Notes: generated by a model from the sequence alone, not told the origin. A stretch of 64,000 bases of DNA from Candidatus Omnitrophota bacterium (GCA_016193175.1 JACPSR010000052.1:11226-75225); one strand, 5' to 3'. Positions 1 through 40,503 are shown, counted from the first letter of the stretch. Program-made: numbers and translations.

Positions 1-250
1 TGCACCACGTCCTGGACAAGCGTTGGGAAGTTCTGGGGGTGCACACCCGGTATGGCCTCATCCACCTGGCGCTCAACCTCGACCGTCACCGCGACATCGC
101 TCCCTGGAATGTTCGGCCGTGCGACCTCCAGATCTAACAAGGTGAGTCTCGGGGCCCCACTCTTCTCAGCCTGCTCCCTGGCCCAGTCGAGTTGCACCTG
201 CAGCGCGTTGAGGTCCACCAACGCCAGCGGTGTTGCGGCAGGCTCGCGTG
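1..250 (-). repeat. Internal coding repeat (pairs with 3990..4240, ~92% identical; spacing ~3990 bp), encoding PLALxDLxALQVQLDWAREQAEKSGAPRxTLLDLEVARPNIPGSDV...VDEAIPGVHPQNF.TLVQDVV.
   Basis: + strand 1-250 against 3990-4240, aligned by eye. The shadow ORFs 52..579 and 4039..4452 start with near-identical peptides. Confidence 0.9.
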
Positions 251-3200
251 TGGGCGTAGCCGTAGTCTTCGCGCCAGCCTCGGCGACGGCGGCCTGCAAT
301 CGCGTAAAGAGCTCGCCTTGTGGCAGGAGGGAGAGGGTCTCTCCCCCCTCCATCCTGGGCCCTGAAAGCGCAGGGATCGATAGCTGCTTTGCGAGAGCGG
401 CCAGCTCCCGCACGCGCCCATCCAGCGAGCCATCTCTTGGGCCGACGAAAAGGACGATCCCGCCGCGCTCCGTTTGTATCGACGTCATGAGCGCCCCATC
501 CGCCTCTTTCGCCTTGATCTGGAGCGCAAGGTTCTTAACGAGATTGACGAGCGCGGTGTCCCCTTGCACCTGCTGCTGATCGAACGCCAGGCCGCCGTCG
601 GGCGCTTCGGCCCTCGCCGGGAATGCGGGTGCTGGCCGGTCTCCTTTGACGATGACTGTGGCATCGTCTTTCAGGTACACCCGGTAGAGGCTGGCTTGCA
701 TAGCCGGTTCGCCAATCCGCTGCCGGAGGTGTTGCTCGACTTGATCGGTCAGCCGCTCGCGGTCCACTAGCCAGTCGCCACGCTGTCTCCATACCTCTTG
801 TCCGTTGACCAGCACAACAAGATCCATCACACGCCCGGCGATGCGATCAGTCGCATCCTGCGCCGCTTCGATGAGCGCCGAACGGAGTTCTGCAAACGTC
901 CTCCAGGCCTGGGCCTGTCGAATCTGCTTGATGGAGCGATCCACGATGTACCGCCGCATTTCCTCGTCCACGTGCGGGCGCAAGCCCTCAAGGGCACCGA
1001 GGATGCGTTGCTGGTCCTCGCCGGGAGCCTCCACACCGATCTGTCCGAGGGCCACCACCACCTTCGCCTTCTCGTAGACGACCGGGTCGTTGAGCAGCTC
1101 GAGGAGCGGCGGAATGGCCTCAACCGGGCGCGGCTCGATTTGACCGAGGACATACGCCAGGGCGCCGCGGTGTTTCCGACGGATGCTGGTGAATCTTCGA
1201 AGCAGCGTGGGGATGACCTCTGGCGCCTCGTTGGCAATGGCAATCAACACTTTTTCTGCGTGATAGACCACAAATGGATCGTCGTCCCCCAGGGCCCGGC
1301 GTAACAGAGGAACCGCGTCTTGTGCCTCCCTCCCGTACGCTTCGAGGGCATCACCGGCACCAGCCCGGAGCGACGCCGGGTCCTGACGCAGCTGCCCGAC
1401 CAACGCGGGAACGGCCAACTGAGCGGGAGGCTTGAAGCGTCCCACCAGATGCATGCTAATGGAGCGGATGAACGGATCATCGTGATCCACGAGCGCGACC
1501 AATTCGCGCAGGTCCGCTGCCTCCGTTACCCCAATCCGCTCGAGCGTCCTCGACACCTCCCCGGCAACTTCGCGGAACTCGAGCTCCTCCGACGCGTGAG
1601 GTCCCTGCTCCACCAGGAACGCCAGCAATGGCTCAACGGCTGCGGTCGGTTTTGGCTCAATGCGGCCGAGCGCATTGGCTGAACGGAGGCGAACGGCGTG
1701 GTGGTGATGCCCGAGGGCATAGAGAAGATGTGGCACAGCCGGCGAACCGATCTGAACAATGACGCGTCCATAGATGTCCCCCACCTCTTCCGGGAACTGG
1801 CTCAACCCTGGGAGCGGCACAGAGGCGAGCGCATTGATGAGCGCCGGAACCGCCTGCTCCCCGAGCTGAATCAAGCCGGTCACGGCCGCTTCACGCACAG
1901 ATGGCTCCTGGGCTTTCAGATTTCCGACCAAGGTTTCGATCTCCTGATTCGCGCCGCCGGCTCGTTGATCATTCGGAGCAGGATCGCCTTCGGGTTCGGC
2001 AAGCCAATCCAGGCCGCGGCCTCGGGCACCGACATCCTCCTGAGTGGTGGTGGCTCGGCGCAGAGGTCGGTTGTCCACGAACCACGCGGCTGGAGTCGGC
2101 CAGACCCCTGCCGAGGTGAGTTGCGCGATCGCTTCCTCTCTATCTCGTGGCGACATCGCGCGGCCGCCTCGTCGAAGCCGTGGAAACTGTTGATCGACTC
2201 TGACCAACGCCTCCCTCACCTCCCGGCGCAGCTCGAAGGTGACGGAAGCTCCTGGTGGCCCGACCGCTTCCAGTCCGTATCCTGCCGCGATGGCTCGCAG
2301 TTTTTCCTCCCCGCCTACCCGACTCATGGCATCCTGATGCACCTCAATGCGATGATCCGCTCGGGCATGTTGTTGGAGGAGGGACCGAACGTTGGCTTCA
2401 GGATTGGTGGTCCCCCGAACGACATCATCCCAAGTCATCACGAAGAGCGGCAACTGTTGACGCGCGGGGGCCGACGGCGGAGCGGGTCGGTCTTCTTCTA
2501 CACTCACCAGCCAGTCCTCAAGCCACTGGATCGCTTGGATCTCCGCTCGCAGCTTCTGGTAAGACATCACCTGCCTGACCTCTGTGGGATTACGTGTGTT
2601 GAGGGCGTCAATCCACGATGAGACCGTGTGAGGAAGCCAGCCCACCCGATAGGCGGGGCTGATGAACAGTTGGCGGAAGAAGCGATGCAGCGATGGGACG
2701 CCTGTGGACTGCGCATCTCGTCCAGCTTGTTCAAAGGCCATCGAGAACGCTCGCCACTGATGCTCCCATTCCCCTTGGGTGGAGATTTCATTTGTGAGCT
2801 GGTCGAGTCGCTTCCAATCAAGCTGGCCACCGGCCAACTCGCGCATGAGCGCCTCCACGTGCCCCCGAGCCCACGCAAGAACGGGGTGCACCTTGGCACG
2901 GAGTCTCCGCACAATCACTTGGCTCGCCTCCATCTTGTCAGGCGGGATGGTCGGTACCTCGGGAACCCCTGACTCCGCCGGCGCGCCGCCGGCCACAGGG
3001 GGCAGACTGCCTTGGAAGCTGCGCAGCAGACGGCTAAGGTCCTGCTCATCGGTTAGGGTAATGCGCGCTTCCGCTAGAGCCTGCCGCAACTGAACCTCAG
3101 TGGGCGCGGTGTGCTCCACACGCAGATGCGCCAGCACTGGCAACAGTAAGGGATGGGCCTGCAGGAGCGCTGGGTCGACATTGGCCGTGACAAACGCCTC

Positions 3201-6200
3201 GGCGCGGTCATACGCTGCCAGTCGCGACACGGCGGTGATTGCCTCATGAGCCGCACGATCAACCGCACCCGCACTCTCAGGAATGACGATTCCCTGCTGG
3301 GCGGCTACCTCGAGCAGTTGCTGATGGGCTTCGCGCTCGTTGAGCTGATCTCGATAGAGGCGGGCAAGTACGTTCAGCGCCGGCAGGTTCAGTTGACGCG
3401 GTGGGCGGGGATCGATCAGCCACGGATGTCCAACCACCCTCTTGATGTGTAGTTGCGTATCCGTCGGCAGCTCCTCGAACGGCCCTCCTAACGTTGCGAA
3501 CGCGCCTCGAAAGTCGGCAGGCAAATCAGCGTTCCGGAGGATCGCGCGAACGATGTCGTCAGGCGTGGCGTCGGCATCGATCCTAATCGAGATGGACACA
3601 ATGTTCCCCTGAACATCTCTTTTGTCCAGAGGGGGTGGGAACCAGACACCCGAGCCCAATTGCGTTGAACGATACAGCCGCACTGTCAGTGGTGCGCCCT
3701 CTCCTCCTCGACGCCAGACCTCAAGAGGCCCAACCGGTCGCTCTCTCGTGAGGTTGAGCGCTGTGGTGAACACGCGCTCGATATCAGCCGATGTCAAGCC
3801 CTGCGGGGCCGGCACTTCCCTCGGCGCGCCGCCGGCCACCGGGACAAGATGCGGGGCTTTGGCTCTCGCGAGTGTGAGGAAGGCGTCTCGAACATCTCCC
3901 GGGAGGCCTGGTTTCGCCAGGACGGTACGGACGATCGCTGTGGCGATCGCTTCGTCGGTTGCGTCGACGTTGGCGGTGGCGCGAACGCGCACCACGTCCT
4001 GAACAAGCGTTAGGAAGTTCTGGGGATGCACACCCGGTATGGCCTCATCCACCTGGCGCTTAACCTCAACCCTCACCGTGACATCGCTCCCTGGAATGTT
4101 CGGCCGCGCGACCTCCAGATCTAACAAGGTGGGTCTCGGGGCCCCACTCTTCTCAGCCTGCTCCCTGGCCCAGTCGAGTTGCACCTGCAGCGCGTCGAGG
4201 TCCGCCAACGCCAGTGGACGCTGCGGAACAGATGGTGTCGACCTGCCCGCCACTGGAATGGGCCGATTCAGGAGCAACTGCTGCACGGCAAGTGAGGTGA
4301 GCCACTCTTCACCTCGGGCAGGCACGGTGTGCCATCCTAATCTGGTGGGATACGCAAGGTTCTCCGCCGTATCATCGACAAACAAGATTTCACTCATCAA
4401 CCTAACGCCACTGGGCTGTTCCTGTCTGAGAATCGTCAGCGCCCGTGCGTAGAATGCTTCGGGGTTGTCTTTCAGGACTCCGACTTCTCCTGAGGTAATG
4501 ATGCGAAGACCACCCAGAAATGGAAAACGGCCTTGGAGGTGCCGGGCACGCTCTTGGTCCATATTGGTGAGGACCGCAAGACGATACCCGCGTTCCATCA
4601 ACGCCTGAACCAGTTTCGCCACGCCAGGGATTTCCTCATAGCTCTCGTAGAGCCAGCGCCGGAGCTGCTCGCGCTGCTGGGCTTCAGGCAGGGCGAAAAA
4701 TGTCCGTGCCTCGGTAGTGGCTGTTTCTTTCCCAGCAGTGATCCGTGTCAGCTCTCCAAGGACGTAACCCCAGTACGCATCAGCATCCAAGGTCCCCAAC
4801 CTGAGTTGCTTGGCCGGCTCACCTGTTTCAAGCCACTCTCTCACCGTCTCAGGCTCGACACTGAATGTCCGGCTGATCTGGTCAGCCGCCTTGCTCAGTC
4901 CGTTGGTGAGCAGCGTGCCTGTCAAATCGAACAGCACAGTCTGTACCGTCAGGAGCTGCCCGGCGGCTAACCGTTGCTGAAAGGCCTCCAGGCGTTCAAT
5001 CGCGTCTCGCACCTCAGGCCCTCCCTCTCTCACACCGTCCAGAGACCGAGCTTCGACCGTTTCACGTAACCTTGATGCCAGCGAAGGAATCCAGCCCACC
5101 ATGTTTCCAAAGACATCGCTCATGGAATGAAACAGCAAGAGCAAGCCCGATGCTTGGGCAGCGCGGAGGGCCTGATTGATCGCCCCGTCAAATGCCTCCC
5201 AGTTGCCTTGGAACTGACGCATAAGCGCTCCGAGCCGATCCCAATCAAGCTCCGCATCAGGCCGTTCGATCTCACGCGCCACTTCACCCAACCGTTCCTG
5301 AACTTGCTGAAGAGAGGGTTGCGTGAAGGGGTGGAATGTTGCCATGATCGCCTCGGCAATTCCCGCCTTGGCAGCGTGAAGGACCGCATCGGGCGTGGCG
5401 TCCGCATCGGCATAGAGGGCCACGATGTTCCCCGGGGCGTCCGCATGTCCCGGAAGGACTCGCACCCGCACCTCGGAACCCGAACGCTGTGAGCGATGCG
5501 CCCACACCGTCAGCGGCGGACCCTCTGTGCTCCGCCACACCTGCACCGTCGGACCGCTCTTGTCTTCCTGTCGTGTGAACTTCAGCTCTGTGGTTAACAC
5601 CTGATCAACGCTGCCCCAATCCTGTGGTGGTACCTCGGGAACCCCTGTCTCCGTCGGCGCGCCGGCGGCCGGCAGGCCGCCGCGGGCGGAGTCGGCCATG
5701 GAAGTGAGCAAGGGGACTTGCCGGACGTAGGCCTCGGCCATGTCTCGCTTGATGCCCAGACCAACCAAATGGTCGACAGCCGTCGCTCGATCGAGATCGC
5801 CGAGATAGACGAGCGCTAAGACTTCACGAACCGCTCGGTCGCTGTGGATCCTCGTGATCGTCCGACGGTCGTTCGCGGCCAGCGCATTGACCGGAGACGC
5901 CTGTGATACGTACGGTTCTGCTTCCCGCGCAGTGATCCCGAGGCCCTTGAGCTGTCCAATCGCGCCTGCTGGTGTCAGCTCGAGAAGGTAGCGTCGCGCC
6001 AGCACCTCGCGCACCGCGGGGTCCTTGTGGATGTTGCCGATGAACGCCCGGCGAGCGTTCGTCAAGCGCTCATACGCTGGCGCTACGATGGTAGGACTCG
6101 GCCCACGAGTGGCGGCTGAAGGAAGCACCTCGTCTGCAGTAGCACGCGGAAGGGTTTGGAGATTCGCATATCTTGGCTGGTTGATCGAAGATTCCGTCGC

Positions 6201-9200
6201 GTCGACAAGCGCGATATCGCCGCGTGCCGAAATCAAGAAAAAGCCATGCCCGCCTTCAGTGATTTCTCTCCGGCCTTCGAAGGGACCGAGAATGTTCCCT
6301 TCTGACGTCACGATGCTGACTCGGCCCTGCTCATTGACAATGAGGAGCTCTGCGCTGGCATCAGCTGAGGTGTCTGCGAGCACGATTGAATCAATGTAAC
6401 GGCGCTCCCCTTCTCCCAATAAGCGCGACAGCAGCTTCTTGCCTTCAGCAACACTCAAACGCGCTGCGCCCCTCTGATACGCTGGAACTCTCAAGTGCGG
6501 TTCCACCAGCGCGCCGCCGGCAGCGGGGAGGAGATGCAGAGCGTTCTTCTCTCTTACTAAGTTTGTGAAAGCGCCTCGAAAGTCGGCAGGCAAATCAGCG
6601 TTCCGGAGGATCGCGCGAACGATGTCGTCAGGCGTGGCGTCGGCATCGATCCTAATCGAGATGGACACAATATTCCCCATCACATCTTTTGCGTCCAGAG
6701 GGCGTGGGAACCAGACACCCGAGCCTAATCGCGTTGAACGATGCAGCCGCACTGTCAGTGGTGCGCCCTCTCCTCCTCGACGCCAGACCTCAAGAGGCCC
6801 AACCGGTCGCTCTCTCGTGAGGTTGAGTGCTGTGGTGAACACGCGCTCGATATCAGCCGATGTCAAGCCCTGCGGGGCCGGCACTTCCCTCGGCGCGGCG
6901 CCGGCCGGCGCAGGAGGAATCCATTGCACCGCCGCTGAGCCGACCGATAAATCGGGTACTTCAACCTGAGCATGCGACTTCGCAGCGACCAGACTATAAA
7001 AGCCTTTCGTCGTCTGCCCCGCCATCGCCCCGCGATTGCCCTCGCCCATGACGAGGATCACGTCGGCCGCTTCCCACGCCGCAAGGAACTCCGGCGCAGG
7101 CCGATACGGGTCAAGCGCTCGTGTCTGCGAGCCGGTTGAAATGACACGCAGGCGCGATCCGCCTCCACCCAAGAAGCCGCGCACCGGGTCTGCGTCCAAC
7201 CGCGCGCGCTCATCCGTCACCGTGCTGTCCACATCAGCCTCGACGGCTTTGGCCGCAATGGTGACTGTATGGCCCTGCTCCGTCAACCGCCGCTCCATCG
7301 CCGTGCGACCCACGCCCTCCACGATGTCGTTATCGACGAGAATCAAGACGTTCTTGGGACCTTCGCTCAGTTCCTGACTGAGCTGAGTGCGGTCATCGAT
7401 TGCCAGCGCCCTTGCCTCCTGCTGCTGCAAGAACGCCAGCATCTTGCGAGCGTACTCCCCCAACGCTGTCTCGCCGCCTGCCGCAGACCTCAGCAGATCG
7501 CTAGAGCCCGCGCTGTTCGCCAACGCGGCAATCCCCAGCACCCAGCGATCGCGCTGATCGGGAGCCAGTTCGTCATAGCGTTGCGCCAGCCACGGCATCA
7601 TCACGGCCACAGCCGTTTGCCGGGCTGAGGATTTGAACTGGGCGAGCGGCTCCCCCATGATCTCGCGGAGCGCGGCGTACCACAGCCCTTCAACTTCGCG
7701 TACCGTCCGTTGCTGGAGACGCCCCAGACGAGCCACGAGGGCACCTCTTGCCTGTTCGGCCGCTGACCGTGATTCTGGTTTGACATGTCCGATGGTTTCG
7801 ACGTAGAGATCGAGGTGGCGGAGCAATTGGTCGCGAATGGCCGGCTCGCTCACGGGTCCAGGCCCAAAGACGTAGGTGGCGGGATTCGCGATAATCCGTC
7901 CATCCGCCGGCCCGCGCGCCTCGAGTTGTACCACCAGCCGCTCCACGACAGCTTCAGGGGTAGCGGCCGGCTGAGACCGATCATCTCTCGGGGTGTAGCC
8001 GGCTTCGGGCTCGCCAAGCCCATCGTGACCTTTGCCCTCCACACCCTGCCGCTCCTGGAAGTACGGGGACTCGCCCGTCGGGGCAACGCCGTAGAGGTTC
8101 CTGAGGGCACGGAATTCAGGATCCGCATCTTGCCGGCGGATGAAGTCGGCGGCCTCGTCAAGATTGGAGAGCTCCTTGAAGTCGTGGAGCTCTTCTCCTT
8201 CGACCATGAAGAAACCGGTGTTCAGCTCGGGATACTGCGTGACATCCCCCGTCACGTACTGGGGGAGGAGGTAGCGGGTCAGCTCCTTCCCCTCTGCGTC
8301 CTTCACCACCCTCAGCTCAAGGTTGACATCGGCGCCTCGCTGCTGGAGGACCTCCCCGACCTCTTTGATCTTGGACAGACCGGAGAACTTGTTGTACGGG
8401 ATTCCTCCTTTGGCGGCGAGCTCCCTCTCCACCATGTCCTTGGTGGTAGGATCTGAGGTTGAGATGGTCTCGCCTAAGAATTTCGGCGCCAGCCGGGGAT
8501 CGGGTTTGGTGGTGATGAGCTTCTCCGGGTTCTCCGAATCCGGTCGTCCCTTATTCTCAACGAGCTCCACCAGGTAGCGGTGGCCCTTATTCAGCAGGCG
8601 CAGGCCAAGCGCCAACCAATCCACATCCACGGTGGCGCTGGTGAGCTTCGTCAGATCATTGATGCGGTACTGCTGGATGACCTCTCCGCCGCGCGCGAGG
8701 AGGGTCTCGGCGAGCAGGCCAGGGACGAGCATACGCTGTTTGTTGAGGAGCCGGTAGCCGCTATCCTCCTGCACAAAGACATGCATGGCGGGGTAGAGAT
8801 GCCCAGGCATCACAGGGTCGACGTCGATCGCCTGGACGATGACTCCCTCCTCCAACCGATAGGGGTGAAAGACCGGTACCGGCACGATGTAGAACCGCTC
8901 CGGGGAGAAACCATAGAATTGATTCGCGATGAGATCCTGGACGATCTCCCGCTCCATCCGGGCGCTCACATGGAAGATGATCTGTTGGTTCGCGACCGCT
9001 TGTTCCGGGGAGATCCCAAGCTCCAGATGCGCGCGGGCCAGCCGTTCAATCTCCAGCCGAAGCTGGAGCAACTGCCTGGGACCCCAGGGCAGCGTGTAGG
9101 GGCTACCGGCGAGATGCCCGACGTCCAGGAAGTATATGGCCCCCACCTCGCGATCAGTCACGTCTTTCCCATGCTTCCTGAGGTCCTCGCGCATCCGCCA

Positions 9201-12200
9201 GGCATCTCCGGCAGCTATGATCTGCCGCACGATCGCGCCCCGCAGTTGTTTCTGGATCGCGGCGGCCCGTTCTTCCGTGGTGAGATCGCGCTGGGAGCGC
9301 TCCCTGGGCAAGACGACGTCTGGCCCGGCCAACTCTAAATCCGTCGTGGGATTCAGGCCATATCGGCGAGCTAACGAGGAGATGAGCTTGAGGTCCGCGT
9401 CGGTCAAGTCCGCCATCGTCCGAATGGTTCGGCCGGTCTGGCGGGCGTACTCGGCAATCAGCTGGCCAACCCGCTGGCGCGTGAACGCCTCGGAACGGAC
9501 CGGGGTCCTGAAGGCTTCGGCCTCCGGGATGAGCGGCGCAGGCGGTTGGACGACTCCCACGCGCCCGATGAAGTCGCGCAAGGCGCCGGCCGCCTCCTCC
9601 GGCGTTCGGGTCCCAAGATATTTGACGGTCAGGGCGCCCGCGATAAATTGCTCAAGCACTTCCTCTAAGGACTCGCGCTCTGGGAAGCCGCCTCGAGCCA
9701 GCCGACGATGCACCGCCTGTAGCAGGATCTCTTGATTCGCCGGGGTGATCGTCGTGACGCTCAAGGTATCGATCAACCTCCAGAGGCTCGTGGCCTGTTC
9801 AATCTCGGTGACGGTCGCCTGGTCGAGGCGGTTGGCCGCCTCCTCACGCAACCGCTGGAGCATGACCTGATCCTGTGCGCGATCGCCAGTCCCCTCCACC
9901 TCAAAGTAGACCCGATTGAGCGGTTCGGTCCCTGAGGCTCGAATCTTATAGCTGATGAGCTTGCCCGTCTGTGGGTTGCGAAAGACAAAGAGGAGTTTAT
10001 CGAAATAGGTCCCTCCGAATTCCGGCCGAATGGCCACCAGTGGAAATCCCGCGATCGCAGTCAGCCGCCCCTGGGCGTAGTCATCCAGGTATCCACTGAT
10101 CAACTGCTTCTTGGCCCAGGGGCTGGCGGTCACATCGTCTCGCGCGGCTTCGACATAGCCCAGCTCTTGCTCGATATCCCGGATGATCTGGGTGATGCTC
10201 TTGCGTTCTTTAGCCTGGATGGCTGCAATGAGCAGGCCGGTCAGCAAGCCGTCTTTATCCGGCATCAAAAGCGGTCGCGTCGGGCCAGGCACCTTGACCC
10301 CGATGCTGAACCCGCCGCTCTCTTCATAGCCGATGGCCACGTCGGCGCCTTTGGCCAGCGCGTCCATCATCGGAGGGCCAACGTACTTAAACCCCACGTC
10401 CACCTGGTAGTCCACCTGGTCACGCGTCACGGCATCAAGAGCCTCGTTGGCGATGAGCCGACGGTAAAAGGGATGCAGGAGTTCATCGTTCGTGCCTGAG
10501 GGCGCAACATCCCGCGGACGCAGAATCCGATCGCGATAGCGAGGATCTCGCAACAAGCCCTGGAGGACGACCTCGGTCCACAGGGTTGACGGACCGCTTT
10601 TCACGACAGCTACGCGCCTGCCGCGCTGTTGTTCGGAGCGAATCACCCGATCAATGAGCGCGGTCATGAATCGGTTCGGCGTCTCATACCGATAGTCGTT
10701 GCTGGCGGGGTCCCACCCAAAGACCCCAATCCGATCACCGTCGGTATCATTGCCTTGAATCGAGATGGGTCGGGAGGGCCTGGCCAGCTCCAGGCTCCCC
10801 GCCTTGCGCATAAACGGCTCCTCGGAATTCGAGGGGATCGTCCCCAAGAGATCAGGGTTCGTGTCTCGTCGCAGTTCAACCACTCCCTCAGGCAATCCGA
10901 TGAGGTTCTTAAACAGCGCGACCATCTCTCCATGGGCTGAGCCGTAGAGATCGTCATGGGCATACCGATGTTGACGGTAAAACTCGCGCATCTGATCCGT
11001 GATGTCAGGCCCAAAGAGCGCCGTGAGCACCCCCCGGAGGTAGGCGGCATACGCCTGACGGTATTCCTCGGTGCGGACCAGCCTGAAGGAGGGGTGGCTT
11101 GCCAAACTTCTTTGGATCGTCGCATCATCCGCCTCGGCTTCTGGGAGAGGTGCTCTCAGGACTTTCAGGTCATTCAAGATCTGCCCGATGCGGTCCGTGA
11201 CCGACGTGGGGGCGGGCGCGCCGGAGGGTGGCGAGTAGCGGATCCCATACCACGGCAGTGGATTGTGGCTCGGGGTGATGTTGATCACGCCGGCGAGATC
11301 CTCTCCTACTTGGGACAACGCCCAGTAGACGGCGGGTCCCGTTGCGGTCGCTTTGTCAAAGAGGTGGACCCGGAATCCGGCACGGAGCAGAACCGCCGCC
11401 GTTAACCGTGCGACCGCATCCCCATCGCGACGGGTGTCATACGTGACGACCATTGTCTGCTTGATGGGAGAGGCCTCCTTGGCATAGCGCGCGATCGCCT
11501 CAACGGTGTAGGCGGCCTCGCGGCGGTTGAAGTCGATTCCCCACCTCGCCCGCACCCCGCTTGTGCCAAACCGCTGATACTTTTGGGCGTAGACGGCGTC
11601 AATGAGCCGGCGAACACCCGCTTCCGTCGTCCGGAACTTCAGTTCATAGAGCGCATCGTAGACCTGACCAGCCAGCAGGGCTCGGAAGGGGAGGTAGTTG
11701 TTCGGCTCCTTCGGATCCAGTGTCCCGCGCACCGCCTCCCAGACCAACGGCATGACCTCATCGCGGAGGTACCCGCGCTCCCTCAGCACGCCAAACTCCG
11801 GCCTCTGGAAGAGACCCTCCAGGGTTCGCCCAATCGCTTCCCGCAGGCCACGCATCTGCTGGAAGATCTCACGCCGCTCTTCTTCAGAGACCTTCGGCTT
11901 TTCGCCTCGAGCCTCGTAACGATACGGGCCCGCTTCCACGAGCCACAGCAAGAGGCCGGCAGCCAATTCCGTGATCAGCTCGTGCGACAGGTGCCCTGCG
12001 GCGAGGCGCTGATGCACTTCACTGAGGAAGCTATGGGCATTGTCCAAGGCGCGTGCCCGCGTGGCTGGATCTGACGCGTCCACGAACGCTCGCTTCCCCG
12101 TGATGAAGCGGTTGGCGAACTCCGATGCTGGAACTGCGCCTGCGCCGGCCGCGACACCACTCTGAGCGTCGCGGAGGCGACCCACGACGAGGCGGTCACC

Positions 12201-15200
12201 CGCTTGACGGATTGAGATGCGAGGCTCCTTCGCCTTCGCCACGGCCCACAGGTCGCGCACACTCTCGCCAATCCGTTTCCTCACATCTTTCCGGATATCC
12301 TCATGCAGCGCTTCGCGTTTCGCCTTGCGCTGCTCATTCTCGGCAGGCGACAGTTCAGGATCCGGCAAACTTGCAAGGATCTCGCGGACGCGCTTGCGCT
12401 CATGGTCGGAGACGATGGCCCCACCGGCGCTCGCCACCGAGTCGTGAAAGACGATCACGCCACGCTCGAAGAGCGTCTTGTCGGCCGCTTCTTCGATAGG
12501 ACCGTTGGCCTCCTCGACAATGAGGGTGGCCTGGACAGCCCCGACGTTCTTGGTGGTGATCGTGTTCTCCAGCGCCGCAAGAATCAAGATATCGGTCTTG
12601 CGTGAGAGGACCGCCTCGTTCCCTGCCTGCGTTCCCTCAACGACGACACTCCCGGGAATGCGCGATGCCGCCGTGATCACAGAACGCCGTTCGTCTTTGG
12701 CTTGCTTGATGAGTTCGACCTCTTCTCTCGTGAAGCCACCGACCTTGATCAGGGCGCCTCCTGTGTCGTTGATGGCCTCGACCCTTCGCTCGCGCTCCAC
12801 ATTTTCGATCAGTGCAAAGCGGGCGGCATTCCCCGCCCCGATGATCACGACGGTTGGCACATCGGGGTTGCCCCCCCGGTCCCTGATGGCTTGGCGAATG
12901 TCTTCAATCTTCAGCGCCGCATCAATGGCGTAGGTGCCACCCAGGCCTGTGGCTTCGGTGCGGACGGCAATACCACCAAGCTCGATGGGTTTGGTTGAGA
13001 AGGTGCCCAGGGCTTTGACGATATCCGGCAGATCACGCTGTTCACGAATCGCCTTCTGCCCTTCGCGGATGACGGCCCGGACGTAGGGCAGCGGGCCGAG
13101 GGAGATCTCTTCTTCATTGCGCTTGATGATGACAGGCTCACTGAACTCTGCCTGGGTGGGTTGGACGGTCGGACGGCCCGCAGCGGTCTCACGCTGGGTG
13201 AAGGTGTGCAGGTAGCCTTCGGTGAGCCAGATCATTTCTTGCTCGCCGGTGTTGACGTCTGGGGCGGGGCCGTCGATGCCGATGCCGACGATGGGGGCAG
13301 GATCCCTCTCACGCGTGATGGTGCTGGGTGCGCCCCAGGCTGAACCGATCGCGAGAAAGAGCTCTCGTTGAGCCTCGCGTGGGAATTCTGGTCGAGGATC
13401 AGACGCGCTCGTTTTCTTCAAGACCCATGTCTTGACGGCAACGACATTCCCGCCGGCATCCTTCTGGTAGCCCAGCAGCGCAACGGTTCCCTTGCCGCCA
13501 CCGGTATCTAGACCCACAGAAGCCAGCTTCAGCGTCATCCCCTTCGCGAGGCCCTGCGCTTCTTCTCTCATCCACTGCCGAAGATCGCGCACGAGCTTGG
13601 TCAGCTCCTCCTTTGGTGGAGAATGTTCTAGACGTGAGAGAGCGGCCAAGCGCGACTTCAGCGTTTCGCCCCATGCATCGGAGCCCGCATCGAGCTCACG
13701 GATGCCGCCCTGGAACGGGCCGATGCGGTTGTTATCCTGGGCGCGGACGTGTGGGAAGAACCAGGTTTGGCCATCCACTGGGAGACTCACTTCACCCTCA
13801 TGGATGGCTTGCGTGCCAACGAGCTGCTGGATCAGCTCTGGCGGGAGTTCCTCCGCTTGGGCTGCCGCTTGGGCTGCCGCGCGCATCCGCTCCTGCATCT
13901 TCGTCAGCAGCGGGTTCTGCGATGGCTCGGCAGCCCCTCGCGCGAGCGCCAGGTCCTTGATGAGGGTGATCGCCGAGGCGGCTCGCTGCCACTGGTCATC
14001 CGCCAAGACGATGAGGATCGCGTCCTGGCCATCAATCACCATCGTCCGAGAGGTATCAAATACCGCCTGTCTGCGACCCCGGACTGCAGCCGTCACGAAC
14101 GCTTCACCGGTTTCAAGGTGCGGCAGGCCGCGCACGGCATCCTGCACGACCTGATTCACCTCAGCGCTATCTTTCATCGGCTTGCCGGTCGAGATCAAAA
14201 GGGCGTAGACATCTCCTGAAGTGACAGGAACGCTGACGGCTTCCACCTCGGAATGAGGTGAATCAGGAGTTCCTGCAGGGCTTGGGATGTCTTGCTCAGC
14301 TAATACTTGTTCGAAGGTAGCTGAGAGGGCTACCCCCCTGCGCTTCAAGTCCTCCTGTGTCAACGGCACGATGTTCTGTACCGCAGACTCTTTTCGGTAG
14401 GTGTCGAGCGCCGGCTGATCACGGTTAATCGCCAGATTCAGAGCAAGCGTGACGTGTTTCGTCCCATACTTCTGGTGGATGGCCTGTAGAACCGGCAAGA
14501 GGCTGGCCTCGAGCGGCGACGCAGGGGTGTAGAGGCTTCGTTCGTCATCCACGGGGCGGGTCGGGAGCGTCCGAACAGCTTCCTTCGGCTGCTGCTGACG
14601 CAGATCGATGGTCGTGACGCCTTCCTTCTGATAGAACGGGACGTCTTTGTTGTAGCCAAGGTCAATGACAAAGTCGACCTCAGGCAGTGTGGAGAGATCT
14701 GTTTCATTGCGCACGCTGAAGTTCAGTTGGTCTCCAAGACTCACGACGTAGTCGCCCGCCGTGGTCTTCCCGTGATTGATCGGGACGTCCAAGTGCCCAT
14801 AGTCGGAGTGGGTCTTCAAGCCCTCCGCATACGCGCCTGCCGCAGATGCCGGCATCCCATTGACCCACACCAGCTCGATATCCTGATCCCGCATGCGGGT
14901 CAGGTCATAGAAGATGAGCTGATCGAGTCGGCCGGCATTCTCGGCAATGCCGTTGATCCCCACCCGGACCTTGCGGGTCAGGCGATGCGCGTGGGCTTGA
15001 CGCTTTGCCTTAAGGGCTTGGGCCAACTGACGCGCCGTGCGGACGATCTCCTCGGCTGGGACAGGCGGGGCGGCCGCTGCGGCCGCTCGTCCCCTGCGAC
15101 GCCTGCCGCCTCCACCAACCGCCTCGGGGGGCGCTGTAGGCTGCTGGAGCTTCCCGGCAGCTTCCAAGATATGCAGACTTTCAGCCAGGTCATTGACCCG

Positions 15201-18200
15201 CGCCACATACCCCCATTCGTTGTCATACCAGGGAGAGACGACGACGTACTTCCCGACCGGCCGATCATCGGTGTCGGTGAGCTCGCGCCCGCGCTCATCG
15301 AAGACGCGGATGCGGTCTTCATCAATGATGCTGCTGATTTCACTCTGTTTGACCAAGCCCATGGTCACGTTCTTGGTGACTTGAAGCATCCGGGGATCCT
15401 TCGCGGCCTTGTCTTTGAAGGCCTGGACGACCGCCTTTCTCGTCGCCGGGATTCGCAATGTGGCCCGATACACCAGCATAGACACCGTCGCGGTGGGCAC
15501 GCGGATCGCCAGCCCATTGTGCGGACCGGGGGCGCTCCCGTCGATCGTCTCGATCATCTGCATGGTCGAGATCGACGAAGCCGCTCCGGTCGTGGTCAAG
15601 CCGCTCTCGCGCGTCGCTGGAAAGGCCCGGCTCGGATCCCCCGAGGCGAAGCTCTGCACCGGCGACTGCGTGTTCGTCACGGAGTGGATGGTGATCATCT
15701 CCCCTCGCTCCACCCCAAAGGCGTGATTCAGCGCGGCGACAACCGTTGCCAGCCCGTTGGTGGTGCAGGACGCCACGGAGTGAATGCGCGGATCGATGAG
15801 CTCCATGAGGTCATCCACCGTGGCCCCCAGCACCACCATGGGGGTCTGCGCATCGCCGGGTGGGTTGGTCATCTGCACCTTGGCCGCGCCGTTGTTGATG
15901 TGCTTCTTGATCGCCCCGGCCATGGTATAGGCTTCGCGATCCCCCGAGGAGTCAACGATGTACAGCCGGTTGTGGCCGCCGGGACCCTTGACGTGGGGGG
16001 CGTCCTCCCATTTCTTCCAGGGGAGGACCTGACGCTCGTTATCCACCAGCATGATCCACCCGCCGATCGAGACCCAGTCTTGTCGATAGCGTGTGCCGTT
16101 GATCTTGAGAAAGTGGCCGTACTTGATCTCAAGGCCTTCAAACAAGCGGCCATACGTTGAGTCGCTCTCCGCCATCTTTTGGGCAAGGCGCGCCAACGGT
16201 TCTGAGCCGACCCCGTTCAGATGGATCACGTTCATCCCTCCGCGCCGCAAGGCTTGCGCCAGGTCAAGGAATCCAACGCGTCCCAGGCCGTTAATGGCCG
16301 TCGGGATGGGGTTGGCCAGCACCCGATTCACAAACGCTTCCTGCTCCGCTCGCGTCGTGAACGAGAGACGCCCCGACTTGACCAACCGCTCAACCAACTG
16401 CTCGGTGGGTTTCCGGCGTTCTTCATTCGGAACGAACTGTTCCACTGTCCCGCCAGCTTGCACGGGGATCGCATCCACGAGGTTAGCCTCGGTCAAGGGA
16501 GCGGTCAACGCCGTCAGAGGCGGCGCCTGAAGCTGCGGGCCGGCGACGGTCCCCGACAGCTCCTCGATGCGGCGTTTGAGCTCCGGGGAGGTGGGCGCGG
16601 CTTCTTGCGCAATCGTCAGGTAATGCTGCGCCGTGAACGGGTCATCCTTGCCCTCGGTCCTGGCCAGGTGGAGGGCCAGCTCTGCCGCCTGGTTGCGCGT
16701 GTCAGGATGCAGCTCGTGCGCGTTGTAGGTGTTGAGGAGGAAGCGCAGGAGTTGCAACGCATTCCGATCGTCGTTGTCCGATGGCACCGTGATGGCATCC
16801 TGTTCGAGCTCACTCAGCTCAACCGCTTGCAGACCGTCTTGCTGGATGCGGCGGGCACGGAAGTACCCTCGCGCCGCCTCCACGCGCCGACGGTGTGTCG
16901 GATGGCGGTTGTAGGCCAGCGCATCCGCGAAGGCTTCTTCGGCTTGCTCAAAGAGCCCCAGGTCTCCATACGCCACACCGAGCCGATACGCGGCGTAGGC
17001 CCGCTCGCCGTCCGACCGAGCCGCGCGCACCTGGGCGCGCCAGACGCTGATGTCGGTCTCGATAGTGAACCGGTAGGTTCGGTGGAGGCCGGAGGAGGAC
17101 ACCTGCAGTTGCTCGAGGGTCAGCTCGCCGGTCTTGGGGTTGACCTCGGGCGCGGCCATCGCCCGGCCATCGACGTCCACCCACGGCACCGGACTGACCG
17201 CGGTGAACCACGTCGCAGCAGGGCCTCGCACGAGGTGCTTGGCCTCGTCCGACGAGTCAGAGTCGTACTCGGTCTCCCACGAGACCGCCTTCGTCCGACG
17301 CGCCAGCATGGCGGCAAGCAGCGCGATCTTCCGGCGGTCCTCTTGAAACAGCGCATCGGACAACCCGCGACGGGTCAGGGACGCCCGATGCTCCTGAAGA
17401 AGCGCGGTGAGCGCCGCGGCGATCTCCTGCTCTTTCTGAGCCACTGCGTGCTGTGGGTGTTGCATGATCGCCACGACCCGAGGATGGGTCCACACCGTCT
17501 CATCCTGCGCCAGCTCGATCATCTCATCGAGCGTGTAGCGCTGATAGTCGGAGGGTTCGAAGGAACCTTTCTGGGCCTCGCTCCAGACCCTGGCGGCGGC
17601 CAGGCGCGCCTTATACGACACCTCCAGCCCTGCGGCCATCGCCGCCTTGATGGCCATCTCGGGCGAGGCGCCGATCCCCCACAGGAGATGCAGCCGGTTT
17701 CCGTTCGATGTCACATCCTTCGCCGCCACGGAGAGCACCGGAAGGACGTCGCCGTCTCGGAACGTGTAGAGACCGCCGATCTCAAGAAGGCGTCGGCCGA
17801 GGAACCTGATCGGCGGTAGTTTCTTCAATTTCAGCGGCTGGCCGGTCTCGATGGCCGCCGCGACGGCCTCCTGCAGCCCGGTCCATGCCTGCTCGTCGAT
17901 CGCCCGGCCCCACAGTTGCTCGAGGCCGGCTCTCAGTTGAACGCGATCCTCTTGCACCAAGCCGCCCAGCGCCTTCCACACCGCGTCAAACTGCTTCTCC
18001 CTTCCGAACTTGGCTTCCCATGCGGCCTGCAAGAACGGGCGGTTGCGGTCTCGGTAGAGCGCCGCGCTGCGGAGGTTCTTTGCGCTCACGCCCACCGCCT
18101 TGGCGACGGATTCCAAGTTCTTCGCAGGCGGCGCGTTCAAGTCGACCCTGCGCGTCGCTCCCTTCGGCGCGAAGACATACTGGCCGTAGATATCGACGGC

Positions 18201-21200
18201 GCGCAGCGCCCCGCTCGGCGTCGTCACCGACGCCACGGAGTTGGCCCCCGGCACCCCTGGCGCTCCGATCCGGGCGGTCACCTCGAGCGGGTCGACCGAT
18301 AACGACACGCTGAGCCTGGTGATGGCGAATCGATTGAGGCTCCGGCTGGCTCGCCCCAGATGGCGGTCACGGCCCAGGGTGGGCGCTTCATCCCGCCGTC
18401 CTTCCGCGTTGTCGACCCGGGCGTCCACATCGATGGCGCCAAGGCCCGCGGCGATCCCCTCGGTGGTGCGCCGATCTGCGCCCCGCTTCACTGATTCACG
18501 ATTCGCATCGTGGGAGAGATCCGGCAGGATGCTCATGACGGCGGCGGCTGTGGGCGCTCCCATGCCGGCGAGCGTCTCGAACCGGCTCGGCGCGGCGGCG
18601 CGCGACGGGCCAGCAAGGTTCGTCTCGGCCGCCTCCACGCGCCTGATCCCGACGACGCGCGGATTGACGTGGCGCATGACCCGCTCGGTCCCCAGGCGCA
18701 CTTTTTCACGCTCAGCCTCATCCAACGCGCCGCTTTGCCTGAGGGCTTCGACCACAAGGAGTGTAAAGTCAACCTCAAAGGCGCCTGCCATCTGCCTGAG
18801 CAACCCTCGGGGATTTTCCTTGATCGCCGATTCCAACTCGTCGCTCGGCAAAAGCTGTGCGAAGACTGCCGGGTAGTTGCGCGGTTCGATCGCTCCATTG
18901 GCCACTCGTTGGACCAAGGCCTTCGCAGGAGCGGCCAGCCACCGAAGGCGACTCTCCGAGGTCAGTCGATTGACTCTCGTGCGGGTCAAGTAGTCTGAAA
19001 CGTTCAGGGGGCGGGAAGGAACAGGCAGGAGCTGCTCAAGTAGGATCAGCGCCTCGTGCTTCACCAAGTCGCTGTTCGCGTATAAGGCGAACCACACCAG
19101 CTCCGCCCGGACCCTCGGAAGAACGTCGCTGCCAGCTGGCGCTCTGGAGGCAGCCGCGGCGATGATCCGCAAGAGGCGCGCTTGATCTTCCCAGGATGGC
19201 GCGCCCAACGCCCTGGCTCGAAGCGTCTCGATCGTCTTCGTCGTCACCCGATCGAACTGAGCAAGCAGCCCCACCATGATGTCCAGAACGCCCGGATCCG
19301 ACTCCGTCCCGAGCCGTTGCTCAACACGGCCTTGCACCTCCTGCGCGAGCGGTTGATCCTTCAGGAGCACGGCGATCTCAGCCAAAAGCGCGACGGCCAC
19401 CCGTCGGACGCGCGGGTGGCCATGGGTCAATCCGGCCTGATCGTTGGAGGAGGCCAATAACGCCCGCGCGAGGTTCTCGATCCGTTCTCTGGGAAGACCC
19501 TTGACCGCAGCCAGCAGGACATCGAACCGATCGTTGTACTGGTCATCGGACGCGATCACCAACAGCGCATCGTCAAGGGCGGCACGCCATCCGTTCTCTC
19601 GTAACGCGGCGGCCAATCCGTTCGCTTCGACAAGCGGTTGGACCTCCGGCTGGGGGGAAGGGTATGCCGCCAGCGCAGCGGCTCTGCCTGCCTCGCTCAG
19701 TGCAGGCTTCACAGCCAGGATGGCGCTGGTCAACGCTCCGGTCCGGAGGCTCGTGGAGCCGAACATCAGCACGGACAGCTCAGGGAGCCTCGCGTAGTCG
19801 TAGACGTTCTTGGCATCCATCGCCCCGCCGTAGCCGAGCTCGATCGCTTGCGCGACGTCCGAGCCGAACTGCTCCGCGAGCAGGCGGCGGATGGCGCCGA
19901 GCACGTCATTGACGTCGGCCGGGGAGAGGCCCTTCTTCTTTTCTGGGGCTTTGTTGGGGTCTGCCGCATTGGAGAGCTCAAAGACGATCTTGATCTTCTG
20001 GAGAGCAGACGGGGAGAGGCCGGCGAGACGCGAGAGGAGCTGCCGGCGGAGCACGGTTTCGCGCTGGTCCCAGTCGGCGTCATTGACGTAGACCACGAGG
20101 ATGGGAGCGCGGCCGGAATCGAGGATGACGGTGAGACGTTCACGCACTTGGGAATCGCTTTCTCGGAGCTCTTGATGACCAACGACGACGTACGGCGGAT
20201 CCCTGCCGGCTGGAAGCAGGTGGGGATTCTGCAAACCGAGCTGAACCCCCTGAGGTGCTGCGAGCGGCCGGCCCGCGCCAAGGTCGGCCACGGACGGCAT
20301 CGGCGGCACCACCACGATCGGGCCAGGCGCGCCACGTTGGACGTCCGTCAATGCGCTCAGGTAGGCTCTGGGCTCGCCGGGAAGCTCGAACCGGTTCTCG
20401 CGCTGCCAGAGGTGCACGATGATCGCACTTGGATGCTGCCGGCGGATGCGGCGCACCTGCTCCAGGGCGGCGGCGTCGGTTCCAGCCGCCACGACCCCAG
20501 GGGTCGCTCCGGCCCACGCGCCGCTCAAACCGGCACCGGCCTCCGTCTCTGGAAGCGCCACGATGACGCGCCCCAGGTTGTCGTCGCTGACGCCATCGAG
20601 CAAGCCGGCGCTCGGCATCGCTCCGGACGAGGCGAGCACAATCGGCCGAATCCCGTTGTCGAGGCTGGCCTTGATCCGGGCGTTGCCCTGGCTCACATCC
20701 GCCCCATCGACCAGCGCGTACTGCACGCCGGCGTCTTTCAACATCCTGGCTGACACCGTGCCGGTGAACCGGCCGGACTCCTGCCGAACCTCTGGAGCGC
20801 CGACCGCGATTCCGACGCGGGCCCATGCCTCGCGCTGCAGGGCGGCCTCAGGCGTCTCGGCCAACAGGTGCGCCCCCGGCAACACGATCACCTCCACCGG
20901 CAGCCCTGCGACGGCCACGCCGAGGCGCTCGAGCTGCCGCTGAACAGGTTGATCCGCCGAATTGGCTTTATGGTTGGCGATGAACGTCAGGCGCTTGCGC
21001 GGAAGCGGCGGGATGCCCAATGCCGTTGCCGCCTGGTCACCCAACGCATCGACCACGACCGGCGGGAGCGGCGTGTTGCCCAATCGCCCGCCCGGCATGG
21101 CGTTGATCGTCTCTTCCACGAGGTCGGAGACCCTGCGGCCCCCCACCTCGGTCGTGGGAGCCAGGGCCCGACGGTAGCGCCTCATGCTCCAGGTGCGGTT

Positions 21201-38798: not shown

Positions 38799-38802
38799 CC
38801 TC

Positions 38803-40395: not shown

Positions 40396-40447
40396 GGCTT
40401 GCTGCCTGCTACGGTTACCGCGCCACGACCATCCTAATATTAAACAC

Positions 40448-40476
40448 ATAATAATAGATTTCAAAAACATTGTCAA
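40448..40476 (-). promoter_or_regulatory. Sigma70-like promoter TTGACA-N17-TATTAT, in the only AT-rich island of the window. It would drive the 530-aa gene and the downstream megaprotein gene.
   Basis: Minus strand reads ...aattgcTTGACAatgtttttgaaatctatTATTATgtgtttaatattaggatgg. The -35 sits at 40476..40471 and the -10 at 40453..40448 with a 17-nt spacer. It lies between the stop of the 5401-aa gene (40504) and the ATG at 40395, in an otherwise >60% GC window. Confidence 0.5.
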
Positions 40477-40486
40477 GCAATTTTTT

Positions 40487-40502
40487 ATTAGTGGCTTAGT
40501 GG
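40487..40502 (-). repeat. Tandem direct 8-mer GCCACTAA x2 immediately 3' of the 5401-aa gene stop.
   Basis: + strand ttagtggc ttagtggc at 40487-40502. The TAA stop at 40504-40506 is the start of the first copy on the minus strand. No clear hairpin terminator accompanies it. Confidence 0.6.
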
Positions 40503-40503
40503 C

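Follow-up and report, generated by a model that had tools for sequence, protein, structure and literature searches.

How nearly identical segments of DNA come to lie 3 to 4 kb apart within a single open reading frame (ORF) is the question raised by the first 7,000 nucleotides (nt) of a 64,000-nt stretch from Candidatus Omnitrophota bacterium (GCA_016193175.1, JACPSR010000052.1:11226-75225). The whole of this stretch is called the window here, and the frame in question belongs to a giant gene, G, which is coded on the minus strand and extends past the window start. The repeats proved to be genuine: they are in-frame copies of a connector domain, accompanied in one of the two pairs by its junction peptide. 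Probably they are recently copied connectors (a junction with a domain called X, and a paralogous domain called X'') within a multi-enzyme giant gene of the kind found in Omnitrophota.

Both pairs of repeats exist where the preliminary description of this DNA had placed them, and their identities, estimated there at about 96% and 92%, measure 95.1% for pair 1 and 94.7% for pair 2. A search for direct repeats, first in nt 1-12000 and afterwards in the entire window, returned exactly these two long families, with raw matches of 95% at 3488-3787 versus 6557-6856 and at 2-230 versus 3989-4217; the final tract limits (Table 1) were refined by comparison in codon register. Pair 1 covers 345 nt with 17 differences at an offset of 3069 nt, and pair 2 covers 228 nt with 12 differences at an offset of 3987 nt, running into the window start, where it is cut. 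Comparison of the window with itself revealed no other direct repeats of at least 50 nt, and no inverted repeats or tandem arrays. All four copies lie, as had been claimed, within one open frame; it is on the minus strand, where a six-frame scan traced it over 12,969 codons (nt 38909 to 3). The flanks of the four copies are mutually unrelated and are read through in frame, and outside the tracts identity drops sharply to about 45% of nucleotides, the background level. The codon differences comprise 5 synonymous and 9 non-synonymous changes in pair 1, and 5 and 7 in pair 2. The sharp edges and the divergence of about 5% point to a recent intragenic duplication or gene conversion, followed by little selection.

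Comparison of the G protein with itself detected similarity only within amino acids (aa) 10,650-12,969, and the domain that recurs there is X, about 115 aa long and defined by a profile built from its copies. These copies form a graded series of 92%, 47% and about 30% aa identity, the two pairs of ~95% tracts lying amid much older paralogous copies (30-47%). An AlphaFold2 (AF2) model based on an alignment of eight X domains (pLDDT 81, pTM 0.76) predicts an alpha helix followed by four beta strands and a further two alpha helices, and leaves the junction disordered; a Foldseek search of the PDB with this model gave no fold match (best E 0.076, TM 0.28). When aa 10660-11859 were searched with phmmer against 1.84 billion representative sequences, the sole part with homologues was a HAD-hydrolase-like domain, and the best of the proteins matched through it include the long P0123 (5,447 aa), P0126 and P0130. 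The last of these is an ORF of the Omnitrophota metagenome-assembled genome (MAG) contig JACROU010000002.1 (L045:9959-18124), and four X-like domains flank its homologous HAD domain. They have in common with the X copies of G the motifs DIERV, DATPxDxVRxxL and RxAFxxLARxKAPxL, and a profile made from the G copies alone reaches 17.0 bits in P0130, where 500 local shuffles gave at most 1.7 bits. X therefore represents a lineage-restricted family of connectors and is not unique to G. No match was returned by a word-indexed protein search with the 2369-aa C-terminal region of G, by a scan of JGI metagenomes with the block formed by X'', junction and X, or by a megablast search of a plasmid collection with nt 1-20000.

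The other recurrent element is a Pro/Ala/Gly-rich junction peptide with the consensus hP(P/V/A)AG(G/A/R), in its fuller form hP(P/V/A)AG(G/A)AP. It occurs six times, at aa 10669, 10797, 11082, 11554, 11692 and 11973, and every occurrence is at a domain edge. A VAGGAP-type linker had been noted at four places and is indeed present at all of them, but the exact PVAGGAP is found at only two (nt ~2993 and ~3836), the others carrying the variants PAAGAP (nt ~5666) and PAPAGAAP (nt ~6905); PAAGGA at nt ~6521 and PVAGRS at nt ~4250 are further variants. The junction is conserved down to the codon level. In the roughly 21,000 aa of G and its neighbours, ORFs B, C and D, the motif is found nowhere else save for two partial PxAG matches at chance level (G aa 2707 and ORF C aa 5378), and a search for a junction-type motif throughout G by k-mer and reduced-alphabet enrichment gave none outside aa 10669-11973. 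As a separate observation, the core of three junctions (2973-3002, 3816-3845 and 5646-5675) is coded by GCCGGCGGCGCGCCG, which consists of two adjacent palindromes, GCCGGC and GGCGCGCC; the latter is found at 12 sites in the window, of which three are junctions. These palindromes are probably a by-product of Ala, Gly and Pro codons in DNA of 63% GC.

Successive junctions are 378-1416 nt apart and the segments between them (126-472 aa) are heterogeneous and unlike one another, so that the "repeated ~1-kb modules" of the preliminary description prove to be incorrect. The contents are, in order, an X domain; a beta and helix-turn-helix (HTH)-like region; the diverged copy X' with a helical region and the HAD domain; X''; X with a helical region; and a helical region with HEAT repeats. 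The repeat region can be viewed as a pair of super-modules that correspond loosely to each other (aa ~10668-11690 and ~11690-12969+), in which the connectors are related and the cargo differs, being HAD in the first and HEAT in the second. A helical "LDWxRL" module follows both J3 and J6, and the regions Y and Y' (aa 10930-11079 and 11812-11971) have no significant similarity to each other (z = 1.4).

In the model favored here, cargo domains (ARMT1-like, HAD-like and HEAT) would be strung together by X, X' and X'', the helical module and the disordered junction peptide. The two ~95% tracts would be recent copies of two of these connectors, arising from the duplication of short segments or from gene conversion between connectors that were already old paralogues; neither tract takes in the cargo between the copies. 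Connector and junction might act as spacer or hinge elements, or as processing sites between cargo. The claim of a recent module duplication is therefore upheld only in part. The copying was recent, but the unit is a connector of about 115 aa with its junction rather than a module of ~1 kb, unrelated cargo separates the copies, and conversion between older paralogues is a possible route as well.

A different account of the same tracts is that ongoing gene conversion (concerted evolution) among old paralogues of the connector maintains their similarity, with copy number remaining stable. This is a real possibility, though probably not the correct explanation. It would fit the limits of the pair 1 tract, which begins precisely with the junction and stops within the final helix of X, not at the edge of a domain, and it would also fit the equal divergence of the two pairs despite their different offsets and the presence of older diverged copies of the same domain in both super-modules. 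Junctions J3 and J6 also share a further tract of 42 nt at 93% identity where the neighboring sequence differs, which points in the same direction. If an older domain had been partly overwritten, however, some paralogue-level similarity would be expected just outside the tracts, and there the sequence is already at the ~45% background. In one genome duplication and gene conversion are indistinguishable, and the polarity and history of a conversion event cannot be inferred. A diversity-generating retroelement was rejected as the source of the differences, which involve all four bases in both directions, and no reverse-transcriptase domain is present in the window.

The suggestion that the repeats are substrates for recombination is plausible: both offsets are multiples of 3, so that deletion or duplication between copies stays in frame. 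By the same token a wrong join would also keep the frame, and mis-joining or collapse in a short-read metagenome assembly might have created the arrangement; West-Roberts et al. reported local errors in Illumina-only assemblies of Omnitrophota giant genes (bioRxiv 10.1101/2023.11.21.568195), and no independent contig over nt 1-7000 was obtained. Such an artefact is nevertheless very improbable. The 17 and 12 differences are distributed through the tracts, uninterrupted identity extends over 101 and 63 nt at most (probably less than the length of a single read), and the flanks of the copies are unrelated, all of which makes a forced assembly collapse unlikely. Moreover, six assemblies of individual sequencing runs match 13.8 kb elsewhere in the window perfectly, indicating a clonal, well-covered population, and a strain-chimeric tandem assembly is ruled out by the unrelated flanks. 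Several points do weigh against recent connector copying as proposed above. The arrangement of nt 1-7000 rests on one assembly, and the second copy of pair 2 is truncated at the window start. The role of X is inferred from position only, and the non-synonymous to synonymous ratios of 9:5 and 7:5 show little purifying selection since copying, so that any functional importance of X is conjectural. X itself drew no relative in the single-sequence phmmer search described above, nor in a word-indexed protein search with the X-domain alignment, and the junction motif is confined to aa 10669-11973 and missing from the other 10,600 aa of G.

Whether the giant proteins of Omnitrophota are cut into pieces is a long-standing question, and West-Roberts et al. 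have proposed possible proteolytic processing by C39 or S8 domains. Related long proteins carry recurring junction peptides of their own: RSEMR six times (L077:9914-21625), RSELR seven times (L046:9890-21412), [AS]SLG[KE] eight times (L086:9911-21445), R[ASP]EMR nine times (P0123), [AG][AS]SLG nine times (P0130), and AGLEE (L043, L048 and L013). These peptides recur exactly, every ~20-1000 aa, in sequence that is otherwise non-repetitive, and they flank enzyme domains wherever such domains can be recognised; in P0123 and P0130 they bracket PGM, PGK and HAD domains. In G the string AGLE occurs four times, against about one expected from composition, with two of the four inside the FBPase-like region and not at a boundary.

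The same two relatives begin with a module that is a separate gene in the window. ORF B, directly upstream of G, aligns over ~490 aa with the N-termini of P0123 and P0130 (25-27% identity, E 1e-30 to 1e-35), where it is fused to the multi-enzyme protein. A scan of GTDB genomes with ORF B alone gave no match, and a scan with the alignment of all three gave 93 relatives, nearly all in Omnitrophota MAGs (GC 35-68%, up to three paralogues per MAG), each of which heads, or directly precedes, an ORF open for thousands of codons. The closest, L007 (45% identity, from the same groundwater), has a long ORF with Sigma70_r4 upstream and a PGM-bearing ORF downstream. Some of the contigs with ORF B homologues (L008, L010, L012, L015 and others) come from third-party assemblies that give them the label "uncultured Planctomycetia" or "Actinomycetota"; their ORF B homologues fall among the Omnitrophota ones, which suggests that the bins are perhaps mislabelled.

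Forty ORF B homologues share the invariant residues D77, H79, E107, R446, G471-G472 and H474 (GGFH474). The resulting pattern, an acid-x-His followed 28 residues on by Glu, then Arg and, 28 residues further, His, matches the 2His/2Glu+Arg signature of the TIKI superfamily as found in RRSP (E3900, H3902, E3930, R4001, H4030) and Bcr135 (H85, E113; PMC6254334). The spacings are those of RRSP and Bcr135, and the first acid is Asp, not Glu. In the AF2 model of ORF B (pLDDT 77) a long helical insertion divides an alpha/beta core. ORF B is like the TIKI superfamily (Tiki, TraB/PrgY, erythromycin esterases, ChaN, RRSP and HopBA1) in catalytic spacing and predicted core, and differs from it in the insertion of ~300 aa between the halves, in the first acid, and in that all profile and fold matches are below significance. 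Pfam ChaN/Tiki (PF04187) matches 7 of the 40 homologues weakly (best E 0.0015, below cut-off), HopBA1 and EreC, both TIKI members, appear in a Foldseek search of the PDB with no more than a non-significant E of 1.9-2.9, and neither a PDB profile search nor an NCBIfam scan with the family gave a match. The evidence is suggestive, not proof, and marks ORF B as a candidate TIKI-superfamily hydrolase.

These observations permit a reading in which the junction peptides are proteolytic sites and the giant protein is a polyprotein, cut between its cargo domains by the TIKI-type head module; X would then be part of a recognition or presentation unit. Such a reading would add to the view of the connectors as structural linkers and not exclude it. 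The exact pentapeptides in ORF-B-headed relatives, their positions around PGM, PGK and HAD domains, the domain-edge location of all six junctions in G, the invariant residues with TIKI spacing, and the weak Pfam and Foldseek matches would be consistent with this idea, as would the earlier proposal of cleavage by C39 or S8 domains. It is nonetheless unlikely. All of the TIKI matches are sub-significant, and the superfamily includes esterases and haem binders besides proteases. The motif spans just 1,300 of the 12,969 aa of G and is rich in Pro, Ala and Gly like an ordinary flexible linker, while its codon-level conservation is equally well explained by common descent of duplicated connectors. 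ORF B also has an N-terminal signal-like segment, which leaves its topology relative to the cargo ambiguous. Taken as a whole, from TIKI-like signature to junction peptides, the polyprotein scheme must be considered doubtful, and its extension to the multi-enzyme giants of Omnitrophota in general, each lineage having its own junction peptide cut by a TIKI-like head and the ~95% tracts being newly added processing units, would be more doubtful still. If true, new processing units would let the gene acquire and release new cargo domains. Term searches of the two preprints on Omnitrophota giant genes, by West-Roberts et al. in 2023 and from 2026 (bioRxiv 10.64898/2026.06.07.730766), found no mention of such junction motifs or of a TIKI-like head domain. 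Lineage-specific junction peptides together with a conserved TIKI-like head make it directly testable whether the giant proteins are cut.

G probably starts at the ATG at 38798, four bases past the stop of ORF B, in the context TAA-GAGG-ATG; its frame is already open across the last 35 codons of ORF B, which uses a different frame. Its domains were placed by Pfam and PDB (phmmer) searches, and absences refer to the part within the window, the gene being incomplete. DnaJ, PGK, GPI, TIM, FBPase_glpX, Gp_dh_N/C, ELFV_dehydrog, PGM_PMM I/III/IV, ARMT1-like, Hydrolase and HEAT are each present in a single copy, and a second, weak Gp_dh_C-like fragment was seen at aa ~8224-8297. Catalytic motifs are retained in GAPDH (SCTTN and His) and PGK (RVDYNVP/GGGD). 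The TIM-like domain is interrupted by an insertion of ~170 aa and lacks the canonical EPVWAIGTG and GHSERR, so that it may be catalytically inactive. A search with the PGK domain found only ordinary PGKs of 390-400 aa and PGK-TIM fusions of 646 aa, none of them more than 46% identical; neither a giant relative nor a taxonomic signal emerged. In BLASTP comparisons of G, C and D with 80 related loci homology was confined to the enzyme domains. About 60% of G has no Pfam assignment, and Pfam at E <= 0.5 on these unannotated 8,240 aa returned nothing credible.

A hydropathy scan of G found hydrophobic hairpins at two places (aa ~980/1011 and ~3397/3482), with virtually nothing of the kind past aa 3500. 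Ahead of the J-domain lies a signal-peptide-like segment (…IVCATIAVSVSPAMAVPSAFA/WGQ) at 38630-38798; if it directs export, the J-domain and the ATP- and NAD-dependent enzymes would be on the wrong side of the membrane. The same topology paradox was noted by West-Roberts et al. in 2023.

The HAD-like domain of G has the motif FDLTGT, with Thr where the DxD motif has its second Asp. P-type ATPases likewise have Thr at this place. The close HAD relatives P0122-P0130 also lack the second Asp (FDLTGT, FDLAGT, FDLVGT, FDFSGT, SDLTGT and LDLKGT). Three of these HAD-bearing relatives (P0124, P0125 and P0129) share a C-terminal domain that starts with GGID(F/L)N and ends in …FTPVI.NITP…; it looks like a conserved sorting or anchoring signal and is not present in the window.

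The entire 64 kb codes on the minus strand in four ORFs, D, C, B and G, and is best explained as a single operon of very long genes, uniform in strand, that belongs to an uncultured member of the Omnitrophota. ORFs D and C overlap by ATGA at 56709-56706. A promoter-like site lies in the 110-nt AT-rich gap upstream of ORF B, the sole AT-rich intergenic gap, and no terminator-like sites were found in 38600-40700. From its ATG at 40395, ORF B is an exact match to NCBI MBI3020873.1 (HYY59_02590), annotated as a hypothetical protein, from a Candidatus Omnitrophica MAG with a contig of 87,084 bp, and it is present exactly in the Logan assemblies of SRR12113385, SRR12113390, SRR12113401, SRR12113419, SRR12113422 and SRR12113425. 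These six runs are assumed to share the dataset of SRR12113421, a run of the same accession series that comes from agricultural groundwater in Modesto, California, according to the citation of He et al. 2021 in bioRxiv 10.1101/2024.02.19.580942. The six independent per-run Logan contigs agree with the window at 100.000% identity over nt 28803-42597, outside the repeat region. Two Logan contigs from different runs (L001 and L002, window 28803-42343) both end exactly at nt 28803, which suggests a branch point in the assembly graph at a short repeat or population variant.

Table 1. Positions of the repeats, connectors, cargo domains and neighboring genes in the window
Feature	Position (nt)	Strand	Position in G (aa)	Details
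Giant gene G	3..38798	minus		at least 12,932 codons from ATG 38798; C-terminus beyond window start
Repeat pair 1, copy A	6561..6905	minus	10669-10783	junction J1 + X domain
Repeat pair 1, copy B	3492..3836	minus	11692-11806	junction J5 + X domain
Repeat pair 2, copy A	3990..4217	minus	11565-11640	N-terminal two-thirds of X''
Repeat pair 2, copy B	3..230	minus	12894-12969	X'', cut by window start
Junction J1	6885..6914	minus		IPPAPAGAAPRE
Junction J2	6501..6530	minus		LLPAAGGALVE; pLDDT ~47 in AF2 model of X (disordered)
Junction J3	5646..5675	minus		GLPAAGAPTETGVPEVP; shares 42-nt tract with J6
Junction J4	4230..4259	minus		PIPVAGRSTPS, degenerate
Junction J5	3816..3845	minus		LVPVAGGAPRE
Junction J6	2973..3002	minus		LPPVAGGAPAESGVPEVP
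X copy 1	6504..6884	minus	10676-10802	copy-built profile; AF2 model
X', old diverged copy	5310..5636	minus	11092-11200	~47% aa identity to X
X'', diverged paralogue of X	3822..4217	minus	11565-11696	ends in junction J5
X copy 3	3489..3815	minus	11699-11807	92% aa identity
X'' copy 2	up to window start	minus	12894-12969+	
Helical LDWxRL module, copy 1	5025..5270	minus	11214-11295	Smith-Waterman versus copy 2, z = 12 over shuffles
Helical LDWxRL module, copy 2	2571..2843	minus	12023-12113	
Two tandem ~60-aa HTH-like helical repeats	5718..6086	minus	10942-11064	between J2 and J3; z = 18 versus shuffles
ARMT1-like domain	6951..7649	minus	10421-10653	directly upstream of J1; Pfam PF01937, E = 2e-10
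HAD-hydrolase-like cargo	4359..4943	minus	11323-11517	Pfam PF00702, E = 2e-11; FDLTGT
HEAT-repeat cargo	1038..1934	minus	12326-12624	Pfam HEAT_2, E = 1e-23
J-domain	38151..38339	minus	191-253	Pfam DnaJ, E = 2e-13; HPD at aa 220, intact
Enzyme-domain run, sugar-phosphate/central metabolism	9867..28082	minus		Pfam, PDB phmmer
PGK, full-length	26910-28082	minus	3610-4000	339 bits; 1php, 1.7e-72
Cupin GPI	26079-26621	minus		Pfam
Split TIM	19731-20981	minus	5977-6393	Pfam
FBPase glpX	17511-18488	minus		Pfam
GAPDH	15168-16307	minus		PDB phmmer, 7u4s, 1e-26
Glu/Leu dehydrogenase (GDH)	12399-13571	minus		PDB phmmer, 1b3b, 1e-18
PGM/PMM	9867-11576	minus		Pfam
ORF B	38803..40395	minus		530 aa, upstream of G
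Sigma-70-like promoter	40448..40476	minus		TTGACA-17-TATTAT; 11/12 consensus matches
ORF C		minus		5,401 aa; Sigma70_r4, TPRs, 7 hydrophobic segments
ORF D		minus		>2,430 aa; AAA_12 helicase, Sigma70_r4, ~11 hydrophobic segments

Very long proteins built from many domains are known from several other systems. MARTX toxins and viral polyproteins likewise consist of a very long polypeptide in which unrelated domains are separated by short recurring sequences, and RRSP, a member of the TIKI superfamily, occurs in MARTX toxins (PMC6254334). In those toxins, however, RRSP is a cargo effector and not a processing protease. The cargo of G consists of housekeeping-type metabolic enzymes rather than effectors, G has no CPD-type or other recognised protease, and its cleavage is only a proposal. 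Modular non-ribosomal peptide synthetases (NRPS) and polyketide synthases (PKS) resemble G in their giant ORFs, Pro/Ala-rich inter-domain linkers and near-identical internal segments that can recombine. A megasynthase of either type was considered for the window and rejected, since its ~21,000 aa contain no condensation, adenylation or carrier domains and no KS, AT or ACP domains; the domains of G are glycolytic or gluconeogenic.

The closest likeness is to the very long multi-enzyme proteins of Omnitrophota themselves. West-Roberts et al. in 2023 described giant genes of up to 85,804 aa in this phylum (giant being at least 30,000 aa) and warned of assembly errors. HEAT and TPR repeats occur in their "Archaeovorin" type and so, more rarely, do TIM, GPI, FBPase, PGM/PMM and aldolase domains. 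This type consistently includes glycosyltransferases, methyltransferases, glycosyl hydrolases, peptidases and NUDIX hydrolases, together with a helicase domain (SecA_DEAD) and, at the N-terminus, a C39 or S8 peptidase. The seen part of G differs from the Archaeovorins in lacking this defining set: no glycosyltransferase, methyltransferase, glycosyl hydrolase, NUDIX, C39/S8 peptidase or SecA_DEAD domain was found at E <= 1e-3 in the four ORFs of the window, where the sole NUDIX trace has E = 0.47 and the only helicase-type match is AAA_12 in ORF D. The J-domain, PGK, GAPDH and GDH of G are, for their part, not among the domains listed in either preprint. G fits the class of "multi-enzyme metabolic cluster" defined in the 2026 preprint. 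It belongs to the same phylum, exceeds 10,000 aa, and has diverse enzyme Pfam domains of which none dominates by copy number. It shares with the Omnitrophota giants the TIM, GPI, FBPase and PGM/PMM enzymes and HEAT repeats (TPRs are found elsewhere in the window), as well as the few hydrophobic anchors, the large unannotated fraction, the strand-uniform coding, and enzyme domains that are highly diverged from free-standing relatives, PGK being a case in point.

This class of gene and the source MAG are both in the public domain, and internal repeats are expected in a giant gene of Omnitrophota. In the 2026 preprint 65% of the long proteins repeat a Pfam domain, and the repeats have mostly decayed at the nucleotide level. 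In G, by contrast, two dispersed tracts are still 95% identical, and such tracts imply that the turnover of modules in these genes is ongoing. The architecture of its connectors, in which an orphan domain and a junction peptide surround interchangeable cargo, provides a concrete picture of how giant genes grow.

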